Shown: one piece after another, positions 26,395-64,000 of the stretch
How positions within the stretch are numbered: position 1 is the stretch's first letter
Layout of the letters: each line of letters starts with the position of its first letter
Assembly: GCF_022045235.1 (NCBI RefSeq)
Contig: NW_027266266.1
Location: 5,017,848 to 5,081,847 of the forward strand
DNA: 64,000 bases
Direction: 5' to 3'
Source of the DNA: Haliotis cracherodii
Taxonomy: Eukaryota
Notes under the pieces: model-generated
Seen by the model: only the letters and a program-made list of their open reading frames with translations
Databases searched by the model: none
What the model was told of the DNA's origin: nothing
Made by a program: the position numbers and the translations under genes

Positions 26395-27055
26395 TAACAC
26401 AAAAGAATAACAGAACAAAAGAATAATAGAACAAAAGAATAATAGAACAAATGAATAATAGAACCAATGAATAATAGAACAAAAGAATAATAGAACAAAA
26501 GAATAATAGAACAAAAGAATAATAGAACTAATGAATAATAGAACAAAAGAATAATAGAACAAAAGAATAATAGAACAAAAGAATAATAGAACCAATGAAT
26601 AATAGAACAAAAGAATAATAGAACAAAAGAATAATAGAACAAAAGAATAATAGAACCAATGAATAATAGAACAAAAGAATAATAGAACAAAAGAATAATA
26701 GAACCAATGAATAATAGAACAAAAGAATAATAGAACCAATGAATAATAGAACAAAAGAATAATAGAACAAAAGAATAATAGAACCAATGAATAATAGAAC
26801 AAAAGAATAATAGAACAAAAGAATAATAGAACCAATGAATAATAGAACAAAAGAATAATAGAACAAAAGAATAATAGAACAAAAGAATAATAGAACAAAA
26901 GAATAATAGAACCAATGAATAATAGAACAAAAGAATAATAGAACCAATGAATAATAGAACAAAAGAATAATAGAACAAAAGAATAATAGAACAAAAGAAT
27001 AATAGAACCAATGAATAATAGAACAAAAGAATAATAGAACAAAAGAATAACAGAA
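26395..27055. repeat. Minisatellite in MVP intron 1: 16-bp unit AATAATAGAACAAAAG, with variant ...GAACCAATG, x about 41
   Basis: Direct periodicity. It generates the long artefactual minus-strand ORFs 26218..27140. Confidence 0.95.
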
Positions 27056-27385
27056 CTACAGAAACATGAAAGAATCGGGTGTTCTTCAACTTCTTTAGCA
27101 TTCCATGATAACTAAGAAACAGATATTGGCAAAAGAGCATATTATAGAAAACTGTTAGTAACTTATTTTATTTTTTGTGAAATCATAGAAAAGCTGAATT
27201 ATACAAAATAATAAAGTTGGTACATCTTCAGTTGGTGATGGTTCCTATTTCAAGATAGAAAATGGCTGGAAAGTCAAAGAGGAGGAGACTTATGTGAGAA
27301 GTTAACACCTTCATATTTTGCGAAGTGAAAATATAAGAGTTAAAATAAGTATTGGGCCACACTTTACTCTAAATGCACATTCCAG

Positions 27386-31978: not shown

Positions 31979-32089
31979 GTTGTGGGAGTAGTGAACATCA
32001 CCACTCTAACTAACCGTCAGTACTGTGTGATTCTCGACCCCGCCGACGAGAGCGGCAGACCACAGCTGGGGAGGAAGAAGCTTATCAAG
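31979..32089 (+). CDS. MVP: MVP exon 6 ([37 protein letters not shown])
   Basis: Acceptor is tgtttcag|GTT. The exon is 37 codons and runs phase 0 to phase 0. Matches human [37 protein letters not shown]. Donor is AAG|GTAATA. Position is not anchored by an ORF-track entry, so it may be off by 1 nt. Confidence 0.88.
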
Positions 32090-32094
32090 GTAAT

Positions 32095-33425
32095 ACACGT
32101 TCCGTAACGTAACTCACTCCGTACCATCACACATCATCACATCACTCACATACACCATTACACATCACCATAACATCACTCACACCACCATCACACATCA
32201 CCGTAACATGACTAACACCACATCACATGTCATCACATCACTCACACAACATCACACATCACCGTAACATCTCTCACACCCTCCATCACACATCACCGTA
32301 ACATCACTCACACCACATCACACATCACCGTAACATCTCTCACACCCTCCATCACACATCACCGTAACATCACTCACACCACCATCACACATCACCGTAA
32401 CATCACTCACACCCACCATCACACATCACCGTAACATCACTCACACCCACCATCACACATCACCGTAACATCTCTCACACCCACCATCACACATCACCGT
32501 AACATCGCTCACACCCACCATCACACATCACCGTAACATCACTCACACCCACCATCACACATCACCGTAACATCACTCACACCACCATCACACATCACCG
32601 TAACATCACTCACACCCACCATCACACATCACCGTAACATCTCTCACACCCACCATCACACATCACCGTAACATCGCTCACATCCACCATCACACATCAC
32701 CGTAACATCACTCACACCCACCATCACACATCACCGTAACATCACTCACACCCACCATCACACATCACCGTAACATCTCTCACACCCACCATCACACATC
32801 ACCGTAACATCACTCACACCACCATCACACATCACCGTAACATCACTCACACCCACCATCACACATCACCGTAACATCACTCACACCCACCATCACACAT
32901 CACCGTAACATCACTCACACCCACCATCACACATCACCGTAACATCACTCACACCACCATCACACATCACCGTAACATCACTCACACCCACCATCACACA
33001 TCACCGTAACATCACTCACACCCACCATCACACATCACCGTAACATCACTCACACCCACCATCACACATCACCGTAACATCACTCACACCACCATCACAC
33101 AACACCATAACATCGCTCACACCCATCACAGAACACCATAACATCACTCACACCCATCACAGAACACCATAACTTACCTCACATCCACCATCACACAGCA
33201 CCATAACATCGCTCACACCAACCATCACACATCATCACATCACTCACACCACCATCACACATCATCACATCACTCACACCCTCCATCACACATCACCGTA
33301 ACATCACTCACACCACCATCACACATCATCACATCACTCACACCCTCCATCACACATCACCGTAACATCACTCACACCACCATCACACATCATCACATCA
33401 CTCACACCCTCCATCACACATAATC
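32095..33425. repeat. Minisatellite in MVP intron 6: about 41-bp unit (CATCACACATCACCGTAACATCACTCACACCCAC) x about 32, beginning about 10 nt after the exon-6 donor
   Basis: Direct periodicity over 1.3 kb. Each unit contains CCGTAACA, which echoes the exon-6 donor context aagGTAATAcacgttccGTAACGTAAC. Confidence 0.95.
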
Positions 33426-33619
33426 AAGGTAACACGTTCCTTTTAATCACACACAATCAAGCTGTGCCTCATCAGTCTGGTAAAGGCATTATGATAATTT
33501 TAAAGAAATTTTCCATTTCAAACTTTAATGCACATTATTAATTTTCTTCATTATACAACTGACAATTAGACTGTAATTTACATAATCAGCATGTTTAAAA
33601 TTTGTTTGTTTTCCTTCAG

Positions 33620-33745
33620 GGAGAGAAGTCCTTCTTCTTGTTGCCGGGTGAGCGGCTTGAGAAGGGAATTCAGAATGTGTACATCCTGGGAGAAGACGAG
33701 GGTCTCATCCTCAGGGCTAACGAGTGCTTCAAGGACAAGGATGGC
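33620..33745 (+). CDS. MVP: MVP exon 7 ([42 protein letters not shown])
   Basis: Acceptor is ttccttcag|GGA. Frame is anchored by ORF 33602..33910. Matches human [37 protein letters not shown]. Donor is GGC|GTGAGT. Confidence 0.92.
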
Positions 33746-34487
33746 GTGAGTGAAACTATTATCTACACATCTGATAACATAGGAGAACCATGTTTCCTGC
33801 ATGGAACTCGCAACACAAAGTTTTATTTCTTGCATCACATTGGTAACATATTGAAAACATTGGTACCAGATTACCATGGTAACCTATTTTCCTGTGAGGA
33901 TGCATCTTAATTTCAAAATTGTCTTCATACTTTATTTGATTTTATCGGCTTGATCTGGGAACAACATTCTGAAGTGTCACTGTAGTATTTAATGTACAGC
34001 AGTCTGAGACATTTGACTTTTAAAGACTATCGATAGTCGCAGGACTAGTGCAAACATGCTTCACTTGTCACTGGTTCAGATTTATCGCCCATAAATGTTT
34101 CTAGTTATTCAGGACTGACATCATTTTATTAAGTTTTCCTCGGCACTATTTCAGGGACAACAGTACTCCAACTCTGTCATCTCGGCAATTCATTTAGCCC
34201 ATGTTATCACCAGATGCCAATAAGCACTGAACACCACTCAAACCGGTCAAGATGATAGTCCATGATAAATTTTGAATCCGTGAAGAAAAAGCCATCCAAA
34301 TTTCAACACTTCCAAAGGTGCAGAGTTGTTTCCCTTTAGCAGTGCCTGGCAAGCAGACAAGTATGATTTTCTAGTGTGGATTCAGCAACCTTTTGTATGC
34401 TCTTGCTAATAATATTCATTACAATATTTTCGTCAGGTGCACATGGTCCAAGATGGGAAAACAGATTAATGTTATTGTTTTGTGTAG

Positions 34488-36865: not shown

Positions 36866-37400
36866 CCAATCGAGATATGTGATATAGTGGTTTTACTCTC
36901 CTAGTAGTTATATATAGATATGTGATATAGAGGTTATACTCTTCTAGTAGTTATATATAGATATGTGATATAGTGGTTTTACTCTCCTTGTAGTTATATG
37001 TAGATATGTGATATAGAGGTTATATACTCTCCTTGTAGTTATATATAGATATGTGATATAGAGGTTATACTCTTCTAGTAGTTATATATATATATATGTG
37101 ATATAGTGGTTCTACTCTCCTAGTAGTTATATATAGATATGTGATATAGAGGTTATACTCTTCTAGTAGTTATATATAGATATGTGATATAGTGGTTTTA
37201 CTCTCCTTGTAGTTATATGTAGATATGTGATATAGAGGTTATATACTCTCCTTGTAGTTATATATAGATATGTGATATAGAGGTTATACTCTCCTAGTAG
37301 TTATATGTAGATATGTGATATAGAGGTTATATACTGTCCTTGTAGTTATATATAGATATGTGATATAGAGGTAATACTCTCCTTGTAGTTTTTATATATA
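36866..37400. repeat. Tandem repeat in MVP intron 11: about 43-bp unit (ATATGTGATATAGAGGTTATACTCTTCTAGTAGTTATATATAG) x about 12
   Basis: Direct periodicity, beginning about 27 nt after the exon-11 donor. Confidence 0.9.
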
Positions 37401-37606
37401 TATAGATATATCCACATTTATTACAACCCTTTGTAAGCAACATCCCCATGCTCGTGGATGTAAAAGATCTCAAGTCCTGTATCATTTTTGACACTGTACA
37501 CTTTTTTTGTTATAACCATTGTTCATTACAAGAATATGTACAACTTATACACAACAAATGGCTGGGACAAAAAAGCAGTTCGTTATATACGCAAGTTCGT
37601 TATAAG

Positions 37607-47055: not shown

Positions 47056-47689
47056 TCAGATTCTGGTGACTTATGGCCATTGTATAAAGTCCATCATGTA
47101 ACTACTGTACAAGCTGAAACAAACAATTTGAGACGCGCAACAAAAATATAGTTTAAAAACATGAAACTAATCTAAGAAAATACATGATTAGGAAAATACA
47201 TTGTGTACAAATGGGATTGAATAATACAAGTGTGCTATTATGCTCGTTGCAATGCTATATTTCTGACAACATTCTATGAATAAATACTGGTAACATAAGC
47301 TGAAGCCAATCTGACAGCACACGGTAACTGAAGTTGTGGACAGTCGTGTAAAATCCTCAAACAAGATCACACCTTTTTTTCACTGTTCTTGATAAGGCGC
47401 CATTTATCATATCATCCAAACCTGGCTTCCACAGCAGATACCACCTGGGATATATTGGGACAACGAATTGCATCACAATGCTTTGCAGACCATTGGGGAA
47501 GTCATCAGGCACATGACATCACCGATCTCTTTGTTATTGAGGATGGTTAGCAGTGCTTTTTATACTCAAGACACTGGTTATTACTATTTACAAAATAAAA
47601 CTGGGTGGACGAATGATCTGAATGATAAATACAATCTCACCCTTGTGTCTTTGGATGTCAAATATTTCAACACTCTGGATGAAATGCTT

Positions 47690-47948
47690 ATATTATATAT
47701 ATCAACACTTGTGGATGAAAGTTTGATATCAAATATATCAACACTCGTGAATGAAAGTTTGATATCAAATATATCAACATTCATGGATGAAAGTTTGATA
47801 TGAAAAATATCAACACTTGTGGATGAAAGTTTGATATGAAATATATCAACACTCGTGGATGAAAGTTTGATATGAAATATATCAACACTCGTGGATGAAA
47901 GTTTGATATGAAATATATCAACACTCGTGGATGAAAGTTTCATATCAA
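47690..47948. repeat. 36-bp tandem repeat x7 (ATATCAACACTCGTGGATGAAAGTTTGATATGAAAT)
   Basis: Direct periodicity. Source of ORFs 47468..47803 and 47584..47961. Confidence 0.9.
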
Positions 47949-48187
47949 ATATCCTCGGCAACCCTTGGAGTCTTAAATTTTATCCCCATATGTTGATATA
48001 TTTGATATCAGAAGACACTCGAGTGAGATGCTCTACGTATCAAAGTGGGTAGGTTATACACATGCACAAACATGACAAAGAGACTTTAACTTTTAAAATT
48101 TCAATATCTGCGCCATAGTTAGAACTGTACTGAACAAGCCATTCATATCTTTTCTTAAGAAATGAGAACTCACGTAAACTAAAAGTT

Positions 48188-52379: not shown

Positions 52380-52865
52380 CATCTCTAGTAACACCCCATC
52401 TCTAGTAATAGCCCATCTATAGTAACAGCCCATCTCTAGTAACACCCCCATCTATAGTAACAGCCCATCTCTAGTAACACCCCCATCTATAGTAACTCCC
52501 CATCTCTAGTAACAGCCCATCTCTAGTAACAGCCCATATCTAGTAACACCCCCAAAACTAGTAACACCCCCATCTCTAGTAACATCCCCATCTCTAGTAA
52601 CACCCCCATCTCTAGTAACAGCCCATCTCTAGTAACACCCCCATCTCTAGTAACAGCCCATCTATAGTAACAGCCCATCTCTATTAACACCCCCATCTAT
52701 AGTAACAGCCCATCTCTAGTAACACCCCCATCTATAGTAACTCCCCATCTCTAGTAACAGCCCATCTCTAGTAACAGCCCATCTCTAGTAACACCCCCAT
52801 CTATAGTAACACCCCAATCTCTAGTAACACCCCCATCTCTAGTAACACCCCCATCTTGTTGTGTA
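52380..52865. repeat. 17-bp tandem repeat x about 28 (CCCCATCTCTAGTAACA, with AGCCCATCT variants)
   Basis: Direct periodicity. Confidence 0.9.
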
Positions 52866-54083: not shown

Positions 54084-54262
54084 CTATGACCGGAACGTGT
54101 GAACAACGCGCACCACGTACTGTCGGCACATGGGGCACTCGGCGAGGCGCTTGCCGCAGGATGTGCACGTGATCATGTGACCACACTCCAGTAGAACACA
54201 GTCTATAGTATTGTCCATGCATATCTTACACAGGTCCTGCTCAGAACTGGTGGTTATCCCTG
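54084..54262 (-). CDS. RNF34-like terminal RING exon ((A)[58 protein letters not shown])
   Basis: Reverse-strand translation gives a C3HC4 RING finger that is near-identical to the human RNF34 C-terminus ([50 protein letters not shown]). The stop codon TAG is at 54084-54086. The acceptor is tttccag|CA. Position cross-checked against the overlapping out-of-frame ORF 53995..54222(-). Confidence 0.85.
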
Positions 54263-56000: not shown

Positions 56001-56439
56001 CAACTCAAAAGAACTTGAAGAAAACCAAATGTTTTCATGTTACTATAGTTAATCAGTCATACCATGAAAGACCACTTAGTCATATAAAAAAAAATGGGGT
56101 GTTTTTAAAAAAAAATTTAGTAGGACATATTAGAAGTCGAACATGTCATATTTAAGAGCCGTATTCAATGGGAGGAGTTATTGGGTCAATACATCATGAC
56201 ACATATCAACTAGATGAAATAATGTCGGAACAAGGCTTAAACTGACCAGAGGATGGCCATCTTGACAGACAGCCATTCGATCAATGACCAAAGAACACTA
56301 TTTATACTTACTTAATTTATCTGCATTCTCTCTCATCTTTTCAGCTGCAAATTGAGGAAAGAAATGTAAGAAAGGACTAAACAATGACCCAAACCCAGCT
56401 CTCTAACAGGTCAGGCAAAATTGGGCTTAATGTTTTGTC

Positions 56440-57179: not shown

Positions 57180-57800
57180 AGGCTACTGGTCTCCTGTCTA
57201 GAAGCTACTGGTCTCCTGTCTAGAAGCTACTGGTCTCCTGTCTAGAAGCTACTGGTCTCCTGTCTAGAAGCTACTGGTCTCCTGTTAAGTAGCTACTGGT
57301 CTCCTGTCTAGAAGCTACTGGTCTCCTGTCTAGTAGCTACTGGTCTCCTGTCTAGAAGCTACTGGTCTCCTGTCTAGTAGCTACTGGTCTCCTGTCTACA
57401 AGCTACTGGTCTCCTGTCTAGAAGCTACTGGTCTCCTGTTAAGTAGCTACTGGTCTCTTGTCTAGAAGCTACTGGTCTCCTGTCTAGAAGCTACTGGTCT
57501 CCTGTCTAGTAGCTACTGGTCTCCTGTCTACAAGCTACTGGTCTCCTGTCTACAAGCTACTGGTCTCCTGTCTAGAAACTACTGGTCTCCTGTTAAGTAG
57601 CTACTGGTCTCTTGTCTAGAAGCTACTAGTCTCCTGTTAAGTAGCTACTGGTCTCCTGTCTAGAAGTTACTGGTCTCCTGTCTAGAAGCTATTGGTCTCT
57701 TGTCTAGAAGCTACTGGTCTCTTGTCTAGAAGCTACTGGTCTCCTGTCTAGTAGCTACTTGTCTGCTGTCTCCTAGCTACTTATCTCCTGTCTCGAAACT
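57180..57800. repeat. 22-bp tandem repeat x about 28 (CTACTGGTCTCCTGTCTAGAAG) in the RNF34-like intron
   Basis: Direct periodicity, ending about 110 bp from the exon at 57911-58112. Confidence 0.95.
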
Positions 57801-57910
57801 ACTTGGCTATATTTGGACATATAATGATATGATGTGCGCCAAAGCAGGCAGGTTGTATTTGGACAGAATATACCGCATGTCGCGTTGAATAATTCCTCAA
57901 TATTGTTTAC

Positions 57911-58112
57911 CTTTGTCTTTGTTGGACTGTTCTTCATTCCACAGCCGCTTCACTCTATCAGTGAGTTCCGTCTTTTCACAGCACCCCTTGTAATCGACAA
58001 AGTTGTTTGCAAGGACCTCTTTCAGTTGCCTGACCGTCAGTGTGTCGACTTCCCCCACAGTGGCAATATTTTCAAGCCTCATACGCGGGACTCGGTCTAA
58101 CGTTGGTGACTC
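57911..58112 (-). CDS. RNF34-like pre-RING exon ([67 protein letters not shown])
   Basis: Frame is anchored by ORF 57897..58136(-). Acceptor is ggtattgcag|GAG and donor is AAAG|GTAAAC, ending in phase 1. This fits the 2-nt phase of the downstream RING exon. Matches human RNF34 [43 protein letters not shown]. Confidence 0.8.
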
Positions 58113-58862: not shown

Positions 58863-59039
58863 GGATCCCAATTGGAAATTATTCAAGTAAATATTACGCT
58901 GTGTGTTACCCAAAGGCTATATCAAAGTTGATTGTGACGCCATTTCATTATTAGAGCTAAACTGTGTCATGTGGGTCTTACCAAAGGCAAAGAGGTGAGG
59001 TGAAATTGGGTTTAACGTCATGTCCAAGATTATTGCACT

Positions 59040-59290
59040 TATATAGCGACTTGCATGTACGTGTGTGTGCGTGTGGCTGCTTGTACTAGTCCGGACTGAT
59101 GCTGATTTATAGTGCAGTATACTGACTCCGAGCCAACCAGTCCTTGTTTTAGCCCCTTAATGCCGAGCGCCAGACAGGGTTACAACCAGTAACATCAACA
59201 ACGTCTTTTGGTTTGACACGTTTAGGGATTCAACCCCGCCCCTTCCGCTCTCCGGGCGCACGCTCTACCACTCGACCACGGAGGTGGTCC
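59040..59290 (-). mobile_element. SINE family D
   Basis: gctgcttgtactagtccggactgatgctgatttatagtgcag...gccagacagggttacaaccagtaacatcaacaacgtcttttggtttgacacgtttagggattcaaccccgccccttccgctctccgggcgcacgctctaccactcgaccacggaggtggtcc. Confidence 0.7.
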
Positions 59291-59641
59291 AAAAGCACAG
59301 AGGCATATGCAGGGGTTAACCTTGACTTACAAAACTGGGGTCCAGGGACCTACAATAATTAATTTCAAGAGTCCTTACAGGAAATATGAGGGTCCTGTAA
59401 ATTAATGAAAAAGTGGTACTACTTCAGAATTTATTGAGAGTTCGTGATGACTGTTCTGCAGTCACATCAGTTGAGAACTTCATCTCAGTTGTTTGCATGT
59501 GGGCATTATCAGCACACAAGATCAGCACTGGCTGGATACTTATAAGTGGTCCTAAAGCTTTCACTTTTATCCTTCGGGCCTCGAGGCTTCAATGTTTGAA
59601 TCACCACTGATCAGTGCTGATGGTAGGAGTAGCCTGAGTAC

Positions 59642-59728
59642 CTGCATGGGTTCCTCTGGAGACGGGACACTGTCTCTCGGTGTGTCTGTAGGGGGCACAT
59701 CGGGGACACTGTCTTCTCTCATCCGCTC
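59642..59728 (-). CDS. RNF34-like candidate linker exon (ERMREDSVPDVPPTDTPRDSVPSPEEPMQ)
   Basis: Acceptor is ttatttacag|GAG and donor is CAG|GTACTC. The exon is 87 nt, phase 0 to phase 0, with a Ser/Pro/Asp/Glu-rich composition like the RNF34 linker. Frame is anchored by ORF 59567..59776(-). No strong homology, so this is tentative. Confidence 0.4.
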
Positions 59729-59759
59729 CTGTAAATAAACTCTGATGCAGACAAATTCA

Positions 59760-60150
59760 TCTTTGAAAGTAGACAAACAGATTTACAGCTCTCTCAAGTC
59801 CTGCCTACCTGAGTTGATTGAAAAAAACATCATCTTCAACTCTATTCAATCCAAGCAAGTCTTACCACCAACTGCTGTACCAGTCTCTCTAGCTCCACCT
59901 CTCTGAGTTGATTGACATTTATACATCCCTCCCACTCTACTCAACACAAGCAAGTCTTACCACCAACTGCTGCACCAGTCTCTCAAGCTCCACCTCTCAG
60001 AGTTGATTGACATTTATACATCCCTCCTACTCTACTCAACACAAGCAAGTCTTACTACCAACTGCTGCACCAGTCTCTCAAGCTCCACCTCTCAGAGTTG
60101 ATTGACATTTATACATCCCTCCTACTCTACTCAACACAAGCAAGTCTTAC
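59760..60150. repeat. About 95-bp tandem repeat x4-5 that duplicates the 3' end and donor site of the RNF34-like FYVE exon
   Basis: The unit ...TCAACACAAGCAAGTCTTACCACCAACTGCTGCACCAGTCTCTCAAGCTCCACCTCTCAGAGTTGATTGACATTTATACATCCCTCCTACTCTAC occurs at about 59851, 59937 and 60032, with a degenerate copy at about 59760. The copy at 60127 runs straight into the real exon (60151..). Confidence 0.85.
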
Positions 60151-60444
60151 CACCAACTGCTGCACCAGTCTCTCGTGCTCGGCCTCTGAGTTTGAAACAG
60201 ATCCTCGGCTGTAGTGGCGTATCACAAGGTCAATGAGGTCATGTTTTTCACGGCACATATTGGTTGGAATGTTGTGGCTGTCAAGGAAACATCTCATGTC
60301 CTTGACCTTCCACTCTTGCAAGATTTGGCGGCTAAAGTTCCCAGAGACAATAATTCGGCACTTTTGACATTGTCTATCACGTTTATTTGCCTCTTTTGGC
60401 AGACAAGTTGAGCAAAATTGGCGTTTACAATCTCTGCACATTTT
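60151..60444 (-). CDS. RNF34/RFFL (CARP)-like E3 ligase, FYVE-like zinc-finger exon (KMCRDCKRQFCSTCLPKEANKRDRQCQKCRIIVSGNFSRQILQEWKVKDMRCFLDSHNIPTNMCREKHDLIDLVIRHYSRGSVSNSEAEHERLVQQLV)
   Basis: Frame is anchored by ORF 60127..60465(-). The acceptor tttcttctcttccag|AAA has a strong polypyrimidine tract and the donor is GTG|GTAAGA. Matches human RNF34 ...HVCCDCKKDFCSVCS...CSTC...[38 protein letters not shown] in motif order and spacing. Confidence 0.8.
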
Positions 60445-60679
60445 CTGGAAGAGAAGAAATGTCAATTACTGTACAATGTTTATGGACTCTTAAATATTGG
60501 TTGTACCTATTGATACCATTACATTAAACTATAGACCTGATTAACAGAGCAGAACGAATGCTCCCTCGATTTCAACATTAGTCATGTCATTTAATGTATG
60601 AACCATAATTTGATGAACATGTTGGAGACTTAATTTCCTTCTTATATCAAATGATAATTTTAAGGTTAATCCATGTTTA

Positions 60680-60960
60680 TCCTGTATCGTTGTGTTTTGT
60701 TTGTTTGTTGTTTAACGCCGCACTCAGCAATATTCAAGCTATATGACGGCTGTCTGTAAATAATTGAGTCTGGACCAGATAATCCAGTGATTGACATCAT
60801 GAGCATCGATCCACACAATTGGGATACGATGACATGCATCAACTAAGTCGGTGAGTCTGACCACCCGATCCCGTTAGTCGCCCCTTACTACAAGCATTGT
60901 TGGGGCAAGCATGGGTTGCGGAAGACCTATTCTACCCCGGATCTTCACGGGTCTGTATCA
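60680..60960 (-). mobile_element. SINE family C
   Basis: gtgttttgtttgtttgttgtttaacgccgcactcagcaatattcaagctatatgacggctgtctgtaaataattgagtctggaccagataatccagtgattgacatcatgagcatcgatccacacaattgggatacgatgacatgcatc...gggttgcggaagacctattctaccccggatcttcacgggtc. Confidence 0.85.
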
Positions 60961-60992
60961 TTGTGGATGGAAACTAGTGTCATGTTTGTTTG

Positions 60993-61160
60993 AGTGAGTG
61001 AGTGAGTATGGTTTTACGCCGCTTTTAGCAATATTCCAGCAATAGCATGGCGCGGGACACCAGAAATGTGCTTCACACATTGTACCCATGTCGGGAATCG
61101 AACCCGGGTCTTCGGCGTGACGGGTGAACACTTTAACCACTAGGCTACCCGACCGCCCAA
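60993..61160 (-). mobile_element. SINE family A
   Basis: gagtgagtgagtgagtatggttttacgccgcttttagcaatattccagcaatagcatggcgcgggacaccagaaatgtgcttcacacattgtacccatgtcgggaatcgaacccgggtcttcggcgtgacgggtgaacactttaaccactaggctacccgaccgcc. Confidence 0.85.
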
Positions 61161-61589
61161 CATCATGTTTGTCTGAACATGCCTTTAATCATGTTAATAA
61201 ACAACTTACTTCTTACTGACTCAAGAATTACTTAAGATTATTATTGGTAATCGATATTGATGTAGGAATGATAACAGCTTTTCACTGTCAAGTCTTGATA
61301 TTGGTATACACAATGTCGACAATGACAACATTTCTACAAAAACATTTCTTATTTCAACTGCATTTTTCACACAATTATCTGACATAAGATGTCCCACTGG
61401 GTTAGAAGCTGACTAGTGAGGATCACATCATCATGAAAGACTGGGTTCAATAATAACAATAATAACAATAATAATAACAATAATAACAACAAAAATAATC
61501 ATCATAATAATGCACCAGATTCCATTTAACTAAGTGAATGCTCGAAACACAAAACCATTAGCACCCCAATCAATGGATTGGTGCGCTCT

Positions 61590-62690
61590 TTTCTCTTTCT
61601 CAGCTCTCTGGAAGCATACAACCAAACTGCCTGAGAGTCACATTACCATCTCATCCTACCGGGTACCCATTCACTGCTGACTGTGTGGAGCATACAACCA
61701 AGCTGCCTGTGAGTCACATTACCATCTCATCCTACCGGGTACCCATTCACTGCTGACTGTGTGAAGCATACAACCAAGCTGCCTGTGAGTCACATTACCA
61801 TCTCATCCTACCGGGTACCCATTCACTGCTGACTGTGTGGAGCATACAACCAAGCTGCCTGTGAGTCACATTACCATCTCATCCTACCGGGTACCCATTC
61901 ACTGCTGACTGTGTGGACCATACAACCAAGCTGCCTATGAGTCACATTGCCATCTCATCCTACCGGGTACCCATTCACTGCTGACTGTGTGGACCATACA
62001 ACCAAGCTGCCTGTGAGTCACATTACCATCTCATCCTACCGGGTACCCATTCGCTGCTGACTGTGTGGAGCATACAACCAAGCTGCCTGTGAGTCACATT
62101 ACCATCTCATCCTACCGGGTACCCATTCACTGCTGACTGTGTGGAGCATACAACCAAGCTGCCTGTGAGTCACATTACCATCTCATCCTACCGGGTACCC
62201 ATTCACTGCTGACTGTGTGGAGCATACAACCAAGCTGCCTGTGAGTCACATTACCATCTCATCCTACCGGGTACCCATTCACTGCTGACTGTGTGGACCA
62301 TACAACCAAGCTGCCTGTGAGTCACATTACCATCTCATCCTACCGGGTACCCATTCACTGCTGACTGTGTGGAGCATACAACCAAACTGCCTGTGAGTCA
62401 CATTACCATCTCATCCTACCGGGTACCCATTCACTGCTGACTGTGTGAAGCATACAACCAAGCTGCCTATGAGTCACATTGCCATCTCATCCTACCGGGT
62501 ACCCATTCACTGCTGACTGTGTGGAGCATACAACCAAGCTGCCTATGAGTCACATTACCATCTCATCCTACCGGGTACCCAATCACTGCTGACTGTGTGG
62601 AGCATACAACCAAGCTGCCTATGAGTCACATTGCCATCTCATCCTACCGGGTACCCATTCACTGCTGACTGTGTGTCATCATGCCAAGAC
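61590..62690. repeat. 76-bp satellite x about 14 (CATACAACCAAGCTGCCTGTGAGTCACATTACCATCTCATCCTACCGGGTACCCATTCACTGCTGACTGTGTGGAG)
   Basis: Direct periodicity. A single-copy diverged relative lies at 57040-57125 (caacccaagctgcctgtgaggcac...ctactgggtacccgttcactgatggctgaacgg). Confidence 0.95.
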
Positions 62691-62907
62691 ATGGCTCTTG
62701 ATATCAACCACTGGCTTTGATTTGATTATTTCCATGCCACTGTGATACAGATAATGGTTACCAATGTTGCTTTGAAACAAGAGAAGGGATTGATCACTTT
62801 ATCTTCCTGCAAAGGGGAGACCTGATATTTTGTTCAAGATGGATATCTTTTTTGTTCTCAGGTTTTTTATCTTTTCCATTATTGTCATGATGTTAGCTCT
62901 GAATCCT

Positions 62908-63068
62908 CAGGTGGGGTAGCCTAGTGGTTAAGGGTTCCCCTGTCCGGCCAAAGACTCAGGTTTGATTACCCACATGGGTTCAATGTGTGAAGCCCATTTC
63001 TGGTGTCCCCTGCCATGATATTGCTGGAATATTGCTAACAACGGCGTTAAACAATACTCACTGAATCC
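62908..63068 (+). mobile_element. SINE family A
   Basis: ggtggggtagcctagtggttaagggttcccctgtccggccaaagactcaggtttgattacccacatgggttcaatgtgtgaagcccatttctggtgtcccctgccatgatattgctggaatattgctaacaacggcgttaaacaatactcactg. Confidence 0.8.
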
Positions 63069-64000
63069 TCAAACTCTTAATAATCAAATCGATTTAATTC
63101 TCCATGGATTCTCTACCTTAAATCATACATTTATCTGAGTTTATGTTACTTCACTTTAATTAACTGAAAGTCACAGCATCAGGCACGAATGTCAGAAGTT
63201 AAAGGCTGATATCAACTGCCTTCACCAGTTTTATCACGTGAAACACCAATACTGACCAGTGTTCATTATCAAGGGGGTACAAGGGTCCTTGGAATTGCTT
63301 TCTAATACAGCAGAACACGGATATAACAAACTACAAGGGACCAGAGAAATCAGTTCATTATATCCCTTGTTCGTTATACACGTTTTCGCTCGGAAACGTC
63401 CGCCATCTTGGATAAGACAAAACACAATACACGTAATTGCAGAGTTACACGTGAAATCTTCATGGCCTAATTTCACTGCAAGTTCGTCAGCTTTGGTCTT
63501 TCTTTGTTTTTATGCCAGCATCAACAGCATTAACAATTCTCAATTTCATGTCTGAACTGATAGCTTTCCTCTTATTATTGCCCGCCATGACAGCATATGC
63601 AAGTGTACTAACACTTGGACACAATCTCGTAAAATGTATATGTTTAATGTTTGTTTAACAGACAAGATTACATGTACAGGTAAGATTAACACAATGCAAT
63701 TTAACAAGAATGGTCCGTCACCGCTGATCGTATTGATTCGCCACCATTGTGTTAATTCGCCACTGATTGCGTACAGCCAATTGTCAGTGACACTTGACAC
63801 TGAGTGAGATTTCTCAGTTCGCTATACACGTCACTAATTAGTGATAGATGGGCTTGTCGGTGATCAGATATCAGTTCGCTGTATCCATTCGTTCGCTGGA
63901 GAGAGTTCGTTATATACGTAAATTTTCTATGATATATTACAGGAAATAAATCGGGGATTTTTTAACAGTTCATTGTATCCGTTTGTTCGCTATCCGTTTG

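Follow-up and report, generated by a model that had tools for sequence, protein, structure and literature searches.

A 95-bp junction-spanning minisatellite that copies a 5′ splice site in an RNF34/RFFL-like gene of abalones

Introns and alternative splice sites that originated from tandem arrays are reportedly known in human genes from the work of Zhuo, Madden, Elela, and Chabot. Tandemly duplicated mutually exclusive exons are said to have been described by Kondrashov and Koonin and by Letunic, Copley, and Bork, and competition between duplicated identical 5′ splice sites was reportedly studied by Reed and Maniatis and by the Eperon laboratory. Tandem repeats are widely tied to splicing variation (PMC10078293), and it is well established that new splice sites and introns arise from tandem duplications that contain splice-site sequence (PMC3265369; PMC2891723); tolerance of the mis-spliced or unspliced products has been attributed to NMD (PMC2891723). 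In vitro, model pre-mRNAs with duplicated identical 5′ splice sites show strong competition between these sites (Hodson et al. 2012, PMC3413131).

The array described here, found in a 64-kb stretch of Haliotis cracherodii DNA (64,000 nt, hereafter the window), belongs to this known kind: it is a junction-spanning minisatellite, with unusual implications for splicing. Like the arrays known from human genes, it has a splice-site consensus in every minisatellite unit, lies in a transcribed gene, forms a ladder of sites, and is labile in copy number. In contrast to those arrays, it starts in a conserved coding exon, copies an ancient donor, and occupies an old intron; it is genus-wide and evolves together with the exon end, and any alternative use is seen only indirectly, from one RefSeq isoform in one species. 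With the cases of the Rogers model (PMC3265369; PMC2891723; potato RdRp, PMC4974935), it shares the gain of extra, functional-looking sites in one step through a tandem duplication that includes splice-site sequence. In those cases, a new intron is made from one unit flanked by duplicated AG/GT proto-splice sites, whereas in Haliotis an existing intron was lengthened.

The host gene, on the minus strand, encodes an RNF34/RFFL (CARP)-like E3 ubiquitin ligase. The H. cracherodii protein P0010 bears PF22968, PF23632, and PF13920 and has the FYVE-like finger, SAP domain, and C-terminal RING expected of RNF34/RFFL. Exon 2 codes for the C-terminal end of the FYVE-like finger and for the SAP_RNF34_RFFL domain (Pfam PF23632, E = 3e-14); it was named the “FYVE exon” in an earlier reading made from the sequence alone (hereafter the sequence-only reading), but it does not hold a whole FYVE domain. 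Downstream exons were located by tblastn and ORF inspection. All window exons that were searched are identical to H. cracherodii RefSeq XP_071093776.1, and at residues separating H. cracherodii from H. rufescens, they are of the cracherodii type. A search with the concatenated exons retrieved RNF34-like proteins of H. cracherodii, H. asinina, and H. rubra; the 95% identity to the H. cracherodii protein falls short of 100% only through a 13-residue exon absent from the query. The gene runs off the high-coordinate edge of the window: exon 1 (MGAGAVGG...FKRK) is outside 60445–64000, and more than 3.5 kb of the first intron is in the window, compared to ~1.9 kb for this intron in H. asinina. The H. 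rubra protein XP_046548995.1 (L013:19345–19602, QXJH01000704.1) loses the RING after ...GHMITCTS and has an unrelated end (336 aa versus 305 aa), which looks like a last-exon frameshift or an assembly error rather than biology.

The features of the locus are listed below in window positions; a slash marks an exon-intron boundary.

60151–60444, minus: exon 2, 294 nt, 98 codons, followed by a phase-0 intron (from translation; acceptor ttccag/AAAATG)
60151–60195, minus: exon-side part of the first unit (copies aligned in register)
60145–60150, minus: authentic 5′ splice site GTG/GTAAGA (four Haliotis RefSeq proteins join ...HERLVQQLV/ERMRED...)
60127–60129, minus: first in-frame stop, TAG, retained in transcripts spliced solely from a downstream donor copy (read-through VRLACVE, then stop)
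60056–60150, minus: repeat unit 1, donor to donor: authentic donor, 62-nt spacer, and 33-nt exon-like segment
60088–60056, minus: exon-like segment of unit 1, VELERLVQQLV, with AG at 60090–60089 just before it
59961–60055, minus: repeat unit 2: cryptic donor GTA/GTAAGA (A at −1) through exon-like segment 59993–59961 (AG at 59995–59994)
59866–59960, minus: repeat unit 3: cryptic donor GTG/GTAAGA, 9-mer the same as the authentic one, through exon-like segment 59898–59866 (AG at 59900–59899)
59771–59865, minus: repeat unit 4: cryptic donor GTG/GTAAGA, 137 nt from the acceptor, and diverged spacer
~59821–59771, minus: degenerate exon-like part of unit 4, donor lost (orthologous block in H. asinina and H. 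rubra)
59729–59770, minus: unique 3′ tail of the intron, acceptor ...tttatttacAG
59642–59728, minus: exon 3, 87 nt, ERMREDSVPDVPPTDTPRDSVPSPEEPMQ (matches H. cracherodii protein P0010)
57911–58112, minus: exon 4 (ESPTLDRVPRMRLENIATVGEVDTLTVRQLKEVLANNFVDYKGCCEK...)
56312–56344, minus: exon 5 (AEKMRENADKLT, small)
54084–54262, minus: last exon, coding part to the stop codon, with the RING finger zf-C3HC4_3

The 95-nt unit consists of ~45 nt of the exon 2 end, the GTAAGA donor, and ~50 nt of the following intron. On the minus strand of the 59500–60700 region, the exon end ...CAGCAGTTGGTG is followed by GTAAGACTTGC..., and exon end plus donor recur each 95 nt. TRF reported an array at 59839–60174 with a period of 95, 3.5 copies, 96% matches, 0% indels, and a score of 616. 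Repeat search yielded three 167-nt copies at an exact spacing of 95 nt (identity 91 to 100%) and a fourth copy of the exon-like part, ~70% identical, at 59773–59821. The 27-mer GTAAGACTTGCTTGTGTTGAGTAGAGT matches exactly three times (donor G at 60150, 60055, and 59960) and once with three mismatches (59865); there is no other match in the 64-kb window, with 0.00 expected (100 shuffles). Besides the authentic donor at 60150, the intron therefore contains three extra intact donors, at 60055, 59960, and 59865, and a degenerate fifth copy without a donor ends at ~59771. The intron is 422 nt long (60150–59729) and is composed of 380 nt of repeat units and a 42-nt unique tail with the acceptor.

When the copies are aligned in register, substitutions private to each of them can be seen. 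The authentic copy and copy 1 are the same from 24 nt upstream to at least 45 nt downstream of the donor, except for a G-to-A change at donor position −1. The last 24 nt of the exon-side part (60151–60195) are the same as in copy 2, and the 5′ part is ~70% similar to the intronic copies; farther upstream, the exon copy (ctcagaggccgagcac) differs from the intronic ones (ctctgagaggtggagctt). Copies 1 and 2 are 98 to 99% identical to each other, and the fourth copy retains GTAAGACTTGCTTG next to a strongly diverged spacer. The donor 9-mer is GTG/GTAAGA at the authentic site, 59960, and 59865 and GTA/GTAAGA at 60055. Thus, the ~95-bp unit of exon end, GTAAGA, and downstream intron, the divergence of the exon side of the copies, and the ladder of extra donors spaced ~95 nt downstream of the authentic one, all proposed in the sequence-only reading, are borne out, with three near-identical extra donors. 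Its statement that each copy keeps a donor holds for these three GTAAGA sites, the last of them with its diverged spacer, but not for the degenerate fifth copy. The head-to-tail arrangement of units within the 10- to 100-bp range (period 95, with a degenerate copy at the edge) is that of a minisatellite, and a splice-site consensus is present in each unit: GTAAG is found in 4/4 units in the window and in 18/18 in the two other abalone species analyzed below, and the 9-mers agree with CAGGTAAGT at five to seven of nine positions.

The surrounding region is very rich in minisatellites. Fifteen TRF arrays with a score of at least 80 make up ~9.7% of the 64-kb window, and three are in introns of this gene. 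One, at 61613–62675 in the intron upstream of exon 2, has 14 copies of a 76-nt unit (97% matches, TRF score 2007). Another, a 22-nt repeat of 28 copies (90% matches) at 57182–57803, leaves the junction out, starting ~108 nt beyond the donor of exon 4 (57911). Elsewhere, a 34-nt repeat of ~40 copies at 32102–33421, with higher-order periods of 135 and 169 nt, coincides with extreme GC skew (−0.62 in 32001–34000) and is C/A-rich on the plus strand; other arrays are located, for example, at 1671–2003, 26399–27056, 36873–37410, 47660–47952, and 52380–52856. Possible dispersed repeats were also noted in introns of the gene and in its flanks: similar pseudo-ORFs (...LSGPDSIIYR...NIAECGVKQ...) on the minus strand at 60842–60669, 58764–58636, and 58365–58225 and a possible second family at ~61165–60997, 56951–56821, and 53135–53001, each with several matches in the H. 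asinina and H. rubra loci. An array of this type is therefore ordinary here; what is unusual is that a coding exon end and a working donor form part of this one and have long been retained in it.

We also considered orthologous loci outside Haliotis. In seven such loci from public assemblies, which by their nearest named relatives are caenogastropod-like, heterobranch-like, and others, a phase-0 intron sits right after ...LVxxL[VA], with a GT donor after the homologous codon (L001, L002, L005, L006, L007, L010, and L011). Annotated proteins of Batillaria and Gigantopelta run on from the homologous residue (...GELA/... and ...ENLA/...), consistent with the same junction. Since the intron position is kept in orthologous loci without the array, the array expanded an existing intron, and birth of the intron by duplication is ruled out.

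One of these loci, the caenogastropod-like L001, has an array of its own at the same junction. At positions 480–906 (Logan contig SRR30870367_442021), it contains at least seven extra copies of its own exon end and GTGAGC donor, running to the end of the contig. The copies read cttggtYRgagagctagYt/GTGAGC and are spaced by 42 to 58 nt; a 30-mer test detected six of them, compared to 0.005 expected. L001 is 80% identical to Batillaria over this exon, and L011, which is closer to Batillaria, has no copy in the 115 nt of intron that its contig covers. By eye, the Haliotis and L001 units show no similarity past the homologous coding part. Judged from this comparison, the L001 array looks like an independent event.

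The same junction was analyzed in H. asinina (GCA_037392515.2, CM074526.1) and H. rubra (GCA_003918875.1, QXJH01000704.1). In H. asinina, the intron is 516 nt long and has five intact donors, at offsets 0, 95, 192, 287, and 382. In H. rubra, a 1272-nt intron contains 13 intact donors at 95-nt spacing except for one 93-nt interval. The number of extra donor copies is thus 3 in the window, 4 in H. asinina, and 12 in H. rubra, and the number of intact donor-bearing units (4, 5, and 13) differs between related species, as is characteristic of minisatellites and as the sequence-only reading had anticipated. Ten other donor junctions of the gene were tested in the three species, and none had a copy of its exon end and donor. 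The distance from the last intact donor to the acceptor is nearly constant (137 nt in the window and 134 nt in each of the two other species). The block from that donor to the acceptor has a mean column identity of 85% and includes the terminal copy, whose donor is missing in the same fashion in each species. The shared terminal block implies that the exon copy, at least one further copy, and the decayed copy were already present in the common ancestor. Coding dS separates the window from H. asinina and H. rubra by 0.32 to 0.37, and these two from each other by 0.17. From these comparisons, the array is old, genus-wide, and shared by the three Haliotis species, and only its interior copies are young. 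Duplication of exon end, donor, and intron, as proposed earlier, stands, but its supposed recent and local character does not, given the array and decayed copy in three species at dS of 0.17 to 0.37.

Units are more similar within than between arrays: unit identity is 0.86 to 0.93 within species and 0.78 to 0.79 between the window and the other species, with H. asinina versus H. rubra being less clear-cut (0.87 between and 0.89 within H. asinina). Together with the decayed edge copy, this is the pattern of a homogenized array. Species-specific states, including synonymous ones, are common to the true exon end and its own intronic copies. Array-wide, and with the true exon end included, the window has A at donor position +6, where H. 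asinina and H. rubra have T. A Leu codon is CTG in 13/13 H. rubra units and TTG elsewhere, except for one H. asinina unit, and a Val codon is GTG in window units 0 to 2 and GTA elsewhere. Concerted evolution, or else re-expansion from the junction on repeated occasions, is indicated by this pattern; unequal exchange or conversion would be the likely mechanism.

These observations suggest the following history. A segment spanning the exon-intron junction would have been tandemly duplicated, presumably by slippage or unequal exchange, before the split of H. cracherodii, H. rubra, and H. asinina. The resulting 95-bp minisatellite starts within exon 2, ~45 nt before its 3′ end, and takes up nearly the whole phase-0 intron. 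Unequal exchange or gene conversion may then have expanded, contracted, and homogenized the interior copies, leading to the present 4, 5, and 13 intact donors, and 3 to 12 extra units would have lengthened the intron from an estimated 130 to 140 nt to 422 to 1272 nt. The same processes are likely to act on the true exon end, so that its synonymous sites change along with the intronic copies.

Divergence of the spacer is close to neutral, with no sign of constraint. Between species, it differs at 9/44, 7/44, and 4/44 positions, compared to 0.17, 0.25, and 0.13 at four-fold sites (binomial P = 0.81, 0.10, and 0.31). Selection on the spacer was considered since this intron, unlike other introns, aligns end to end; however, its per-site divergence equals that of four-fold sites, and the apparent conservation reflects a lack of indels rather than constraint. 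The donors are more uniform: GTAAG is present in 19/19 intronic copies in the three species, with G at −1 in 17/19. Among these 19 copies, minority cells are rarer in the donor 9-mer than in the spacer (2/171 versus 42/855, Fisher p = 0.02, the cells not being independent).

Donor use in the window species is read from RefSeq protein models only. In the annotated proteins of four Haliotis species, the first, intron-distal donor is joined to exon 3. Every extension to a later donor reads into the intron as VRLACVE and stops at the TAG at 60129–60127, 22 nt into the intron; extensions by 95 and 190 nt also shift the frame. Since the TAG is retained and the frame is shifted, simple use of a later donor gives no full-length ligase, and the exon extension that the sequence-only reading had raised would not yield a functional protein. 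A transcript made from a later donor alone would be expected to undergo NMD or to yield a RING-less protein. Exon definition, with a 294-nt exon located between long introns, would favor the first donor. The model pre-mRNAs described above are similar in that a single acceptor is contested by donors with identical 9-mers and flanks (upstream over at least 24 nt, downstream over 45 nt); in contrast to them, Haliotis presents a natural locus with 4 to 13 sites 95 nt apart, and the productive site is the intron-distal one. The downstream copies would be largely neutral passengers and potential decoy donors. Most likely, the array is a tolerated passenger whose extra donors are avoided, with the first favored by exon definition, or whose products are removed by NMD. 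Taken as a whole, the locus is probably best explained as an old 95-bp junction-spanning minisatellite, with the annotated productive mRNA using the first donor and the copies being largely neutral passengers.

Several other candidates were considered and set aside. RNA structure hiding the downstream donors is ruled out, as the 531-nt pre-mRNA segment folds no better than shuffled sequences (z = +0.82). Rfam has no match at E ≤ 1 in the 59000–61000 region. A gene on the other strand was rejected, as only chance ORFs of 44 to 53 aa are present there. The donors are not recursive splice sites: they are preceded by ttggtg or ttggta rather than AG, and the intron is only 422 nt long. A metagenome scan for the unit core returned 0 matches.

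One alternative is that the copies are functional alternative exon ends, each a 33-nt in-frame mini-exon (AG/.../GTAAG) that replaces or adds to the last 11 codons of exon 2, as a counterpart, for part of an exon, of mutually exclusive tandem exons. In its favor is H. asinina RefSeq isoform X2 (XP_067668268.1), which is 305 aa long, like X1, and differs from it only by V129A and H131C. In the H. asinina array (L012:5262–5811, CM074526.1), only intronic copies 3 and 4 code for the peptide AECERLVQQLV; X2 results if the last 33 nt of exon 2 are swapped for the homologous 33 nt of one of these copies. X2 is reproduced exactly by splicing from an internal donor, GAG/GTTGAG, 33 nt before the exon end, to 33 nt of copy 3 or 4 after caagaAG/, followed by use of that copy's GTG/GTAAGT donor. 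This is the only annotated use of a copy, and it differs from the alternative donor choice envisaged in the sequence-only reading, being the replacement of the last 11 codons by a mini-exon. Also in agreement with functional exon ends, 18/19 intronic copies have an AG 33 nt before the donor, and 18/19 have an open 33-nt frame; both features are, however, inherited from the exon's own GAG codon and reflect the youth of the copies. In the window, the position matching the X2 internal donor reads GAG/GCC, without GT, and in H. rubra, too, it is GC; in the window, the copies would code for VELERLVQQLV. No pyrimidine tract precedes the acceptors. In H. rubra, 9 of the 12 copies code for the same peptide as the exon and so provide no diversity, and another is interrupted by a stop; in H. 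asinina, one copy has slipped out of register. Only one protein each is annotated in H. cracherodii, H. rufescens, and H. rubra, and the neutral evolution of the spacer also speaks against function.

X2 resembles a product of mutually exclusive exons in that copies keep length and frame, and 33 nt of one copy replaces the homologous 33 nt with the 305-aa length unchanged. In contrast to such exons, only the last 33 to 45 nt of the 294-nt exon are copied, a convincing 3′ splice site is missing from the copies, and upstream they could pair only with a weak internal donor that is confined to H. asinina. Mutually exclusive duplicates of a whole exon were thus rejected, the sequence upstream of the AG being purine-rich (ctctgagAG in the window and caagaAG in H. 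asinina). X2 could equally correspond to an exon 2 allele converted by a copy, with reads placed on the copy by a spliced aligner; such an allele would read ...TCAGAGGCGGAATGTGAG.... Both new splice sites of X2 are weak, and the evidence is suggestive only of either a mini-exon splice or an allele or alignment artefact. Overall, we regard functional alternative exon ends as unlikely. The broader view is likewise doubtful: that the array is a fast-evolving reservoir of substitute exon ends and donors, acting at the RNA level through X2-like 33-nt mini-exons and at the DNA level through conversion of the true exon end, with the spliceosome reliably picking the intron-distal of up to 13 donors against the in vitro proximity rule. 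Were it true, the independent L001 array would point to a recurrent, possibly selected architecture at the RNF34-like exon.

Alternatively, the copies could be selected decoy donors that divert a set share of transcripts to products with premature stops subject to NMD, or recruit extra U1 snRNP, thereby tuning expression of the RNF34-like gene, with copy number setting the level. The uniformity of the intronic donors (GTAAG in all 19, G at −1 in 17, and a 9-mer nominally less variable than the spacer) is as expected of selected decoys, and so are the premature stop in every extension, the strong competition of identical tandem donors in vitro (PMC3413131), and the persistence of the array across the genus. 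However, homogenization out of the first copy, which is itself under selection, accounts for the intact donors of the other copies with no need for selection on these, and the donor-versus-spacer statistic counts related copies as independent. The three-fold range of copy number between species fits a tuned dose poorly, and the seven other mollusc or invertebrate orthologous loci are counted as lacking the array, L001 having its own, different one. Selected decoys thus appear quite improbable. The suggestion that the ladder is an assembly artefact of expanded or collapsed reads, or a private and very recent slippage in one genome, can be dismissed with near certainty: copies 1 and 2 are of the 98 to 99% identical kind that assemblers can miscount, but every copy has private substitutions, the same unit is found at the same junction in the independent H. 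asinina and H. rubra assemblies, and the decayed terminal copies of the three species are orthologous.

The old junction-spanning minisatellite with largely neutral copies, which we favor, has several implications. Spliced aligners can mix up alleles and isoforms at such loci, which calls for caution in annotation. For splicing, the abalone locus is a natural experiment on 5′ splice-site choice, with 4 to 13 donors that have identical 9-mers and flanks, a short intron, and one acceptor. A functional protein results only from the intron-distal donor; every other choice leaves a premature stop as its mark. What the annotated abalone mRNAs call for is thus the opposite of the in vitro proximity rule, which makes the locus a useful natural test case. 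For abalone evolution, a coding exon end and its donor evolve in concert with noncoding copies over a dS of ~0.3 to 0.4. Intronic repeats could thereby rewrite the end of an exon, and V129/H131 versus A129/C131 in H. asinina is a candidate for such a change.
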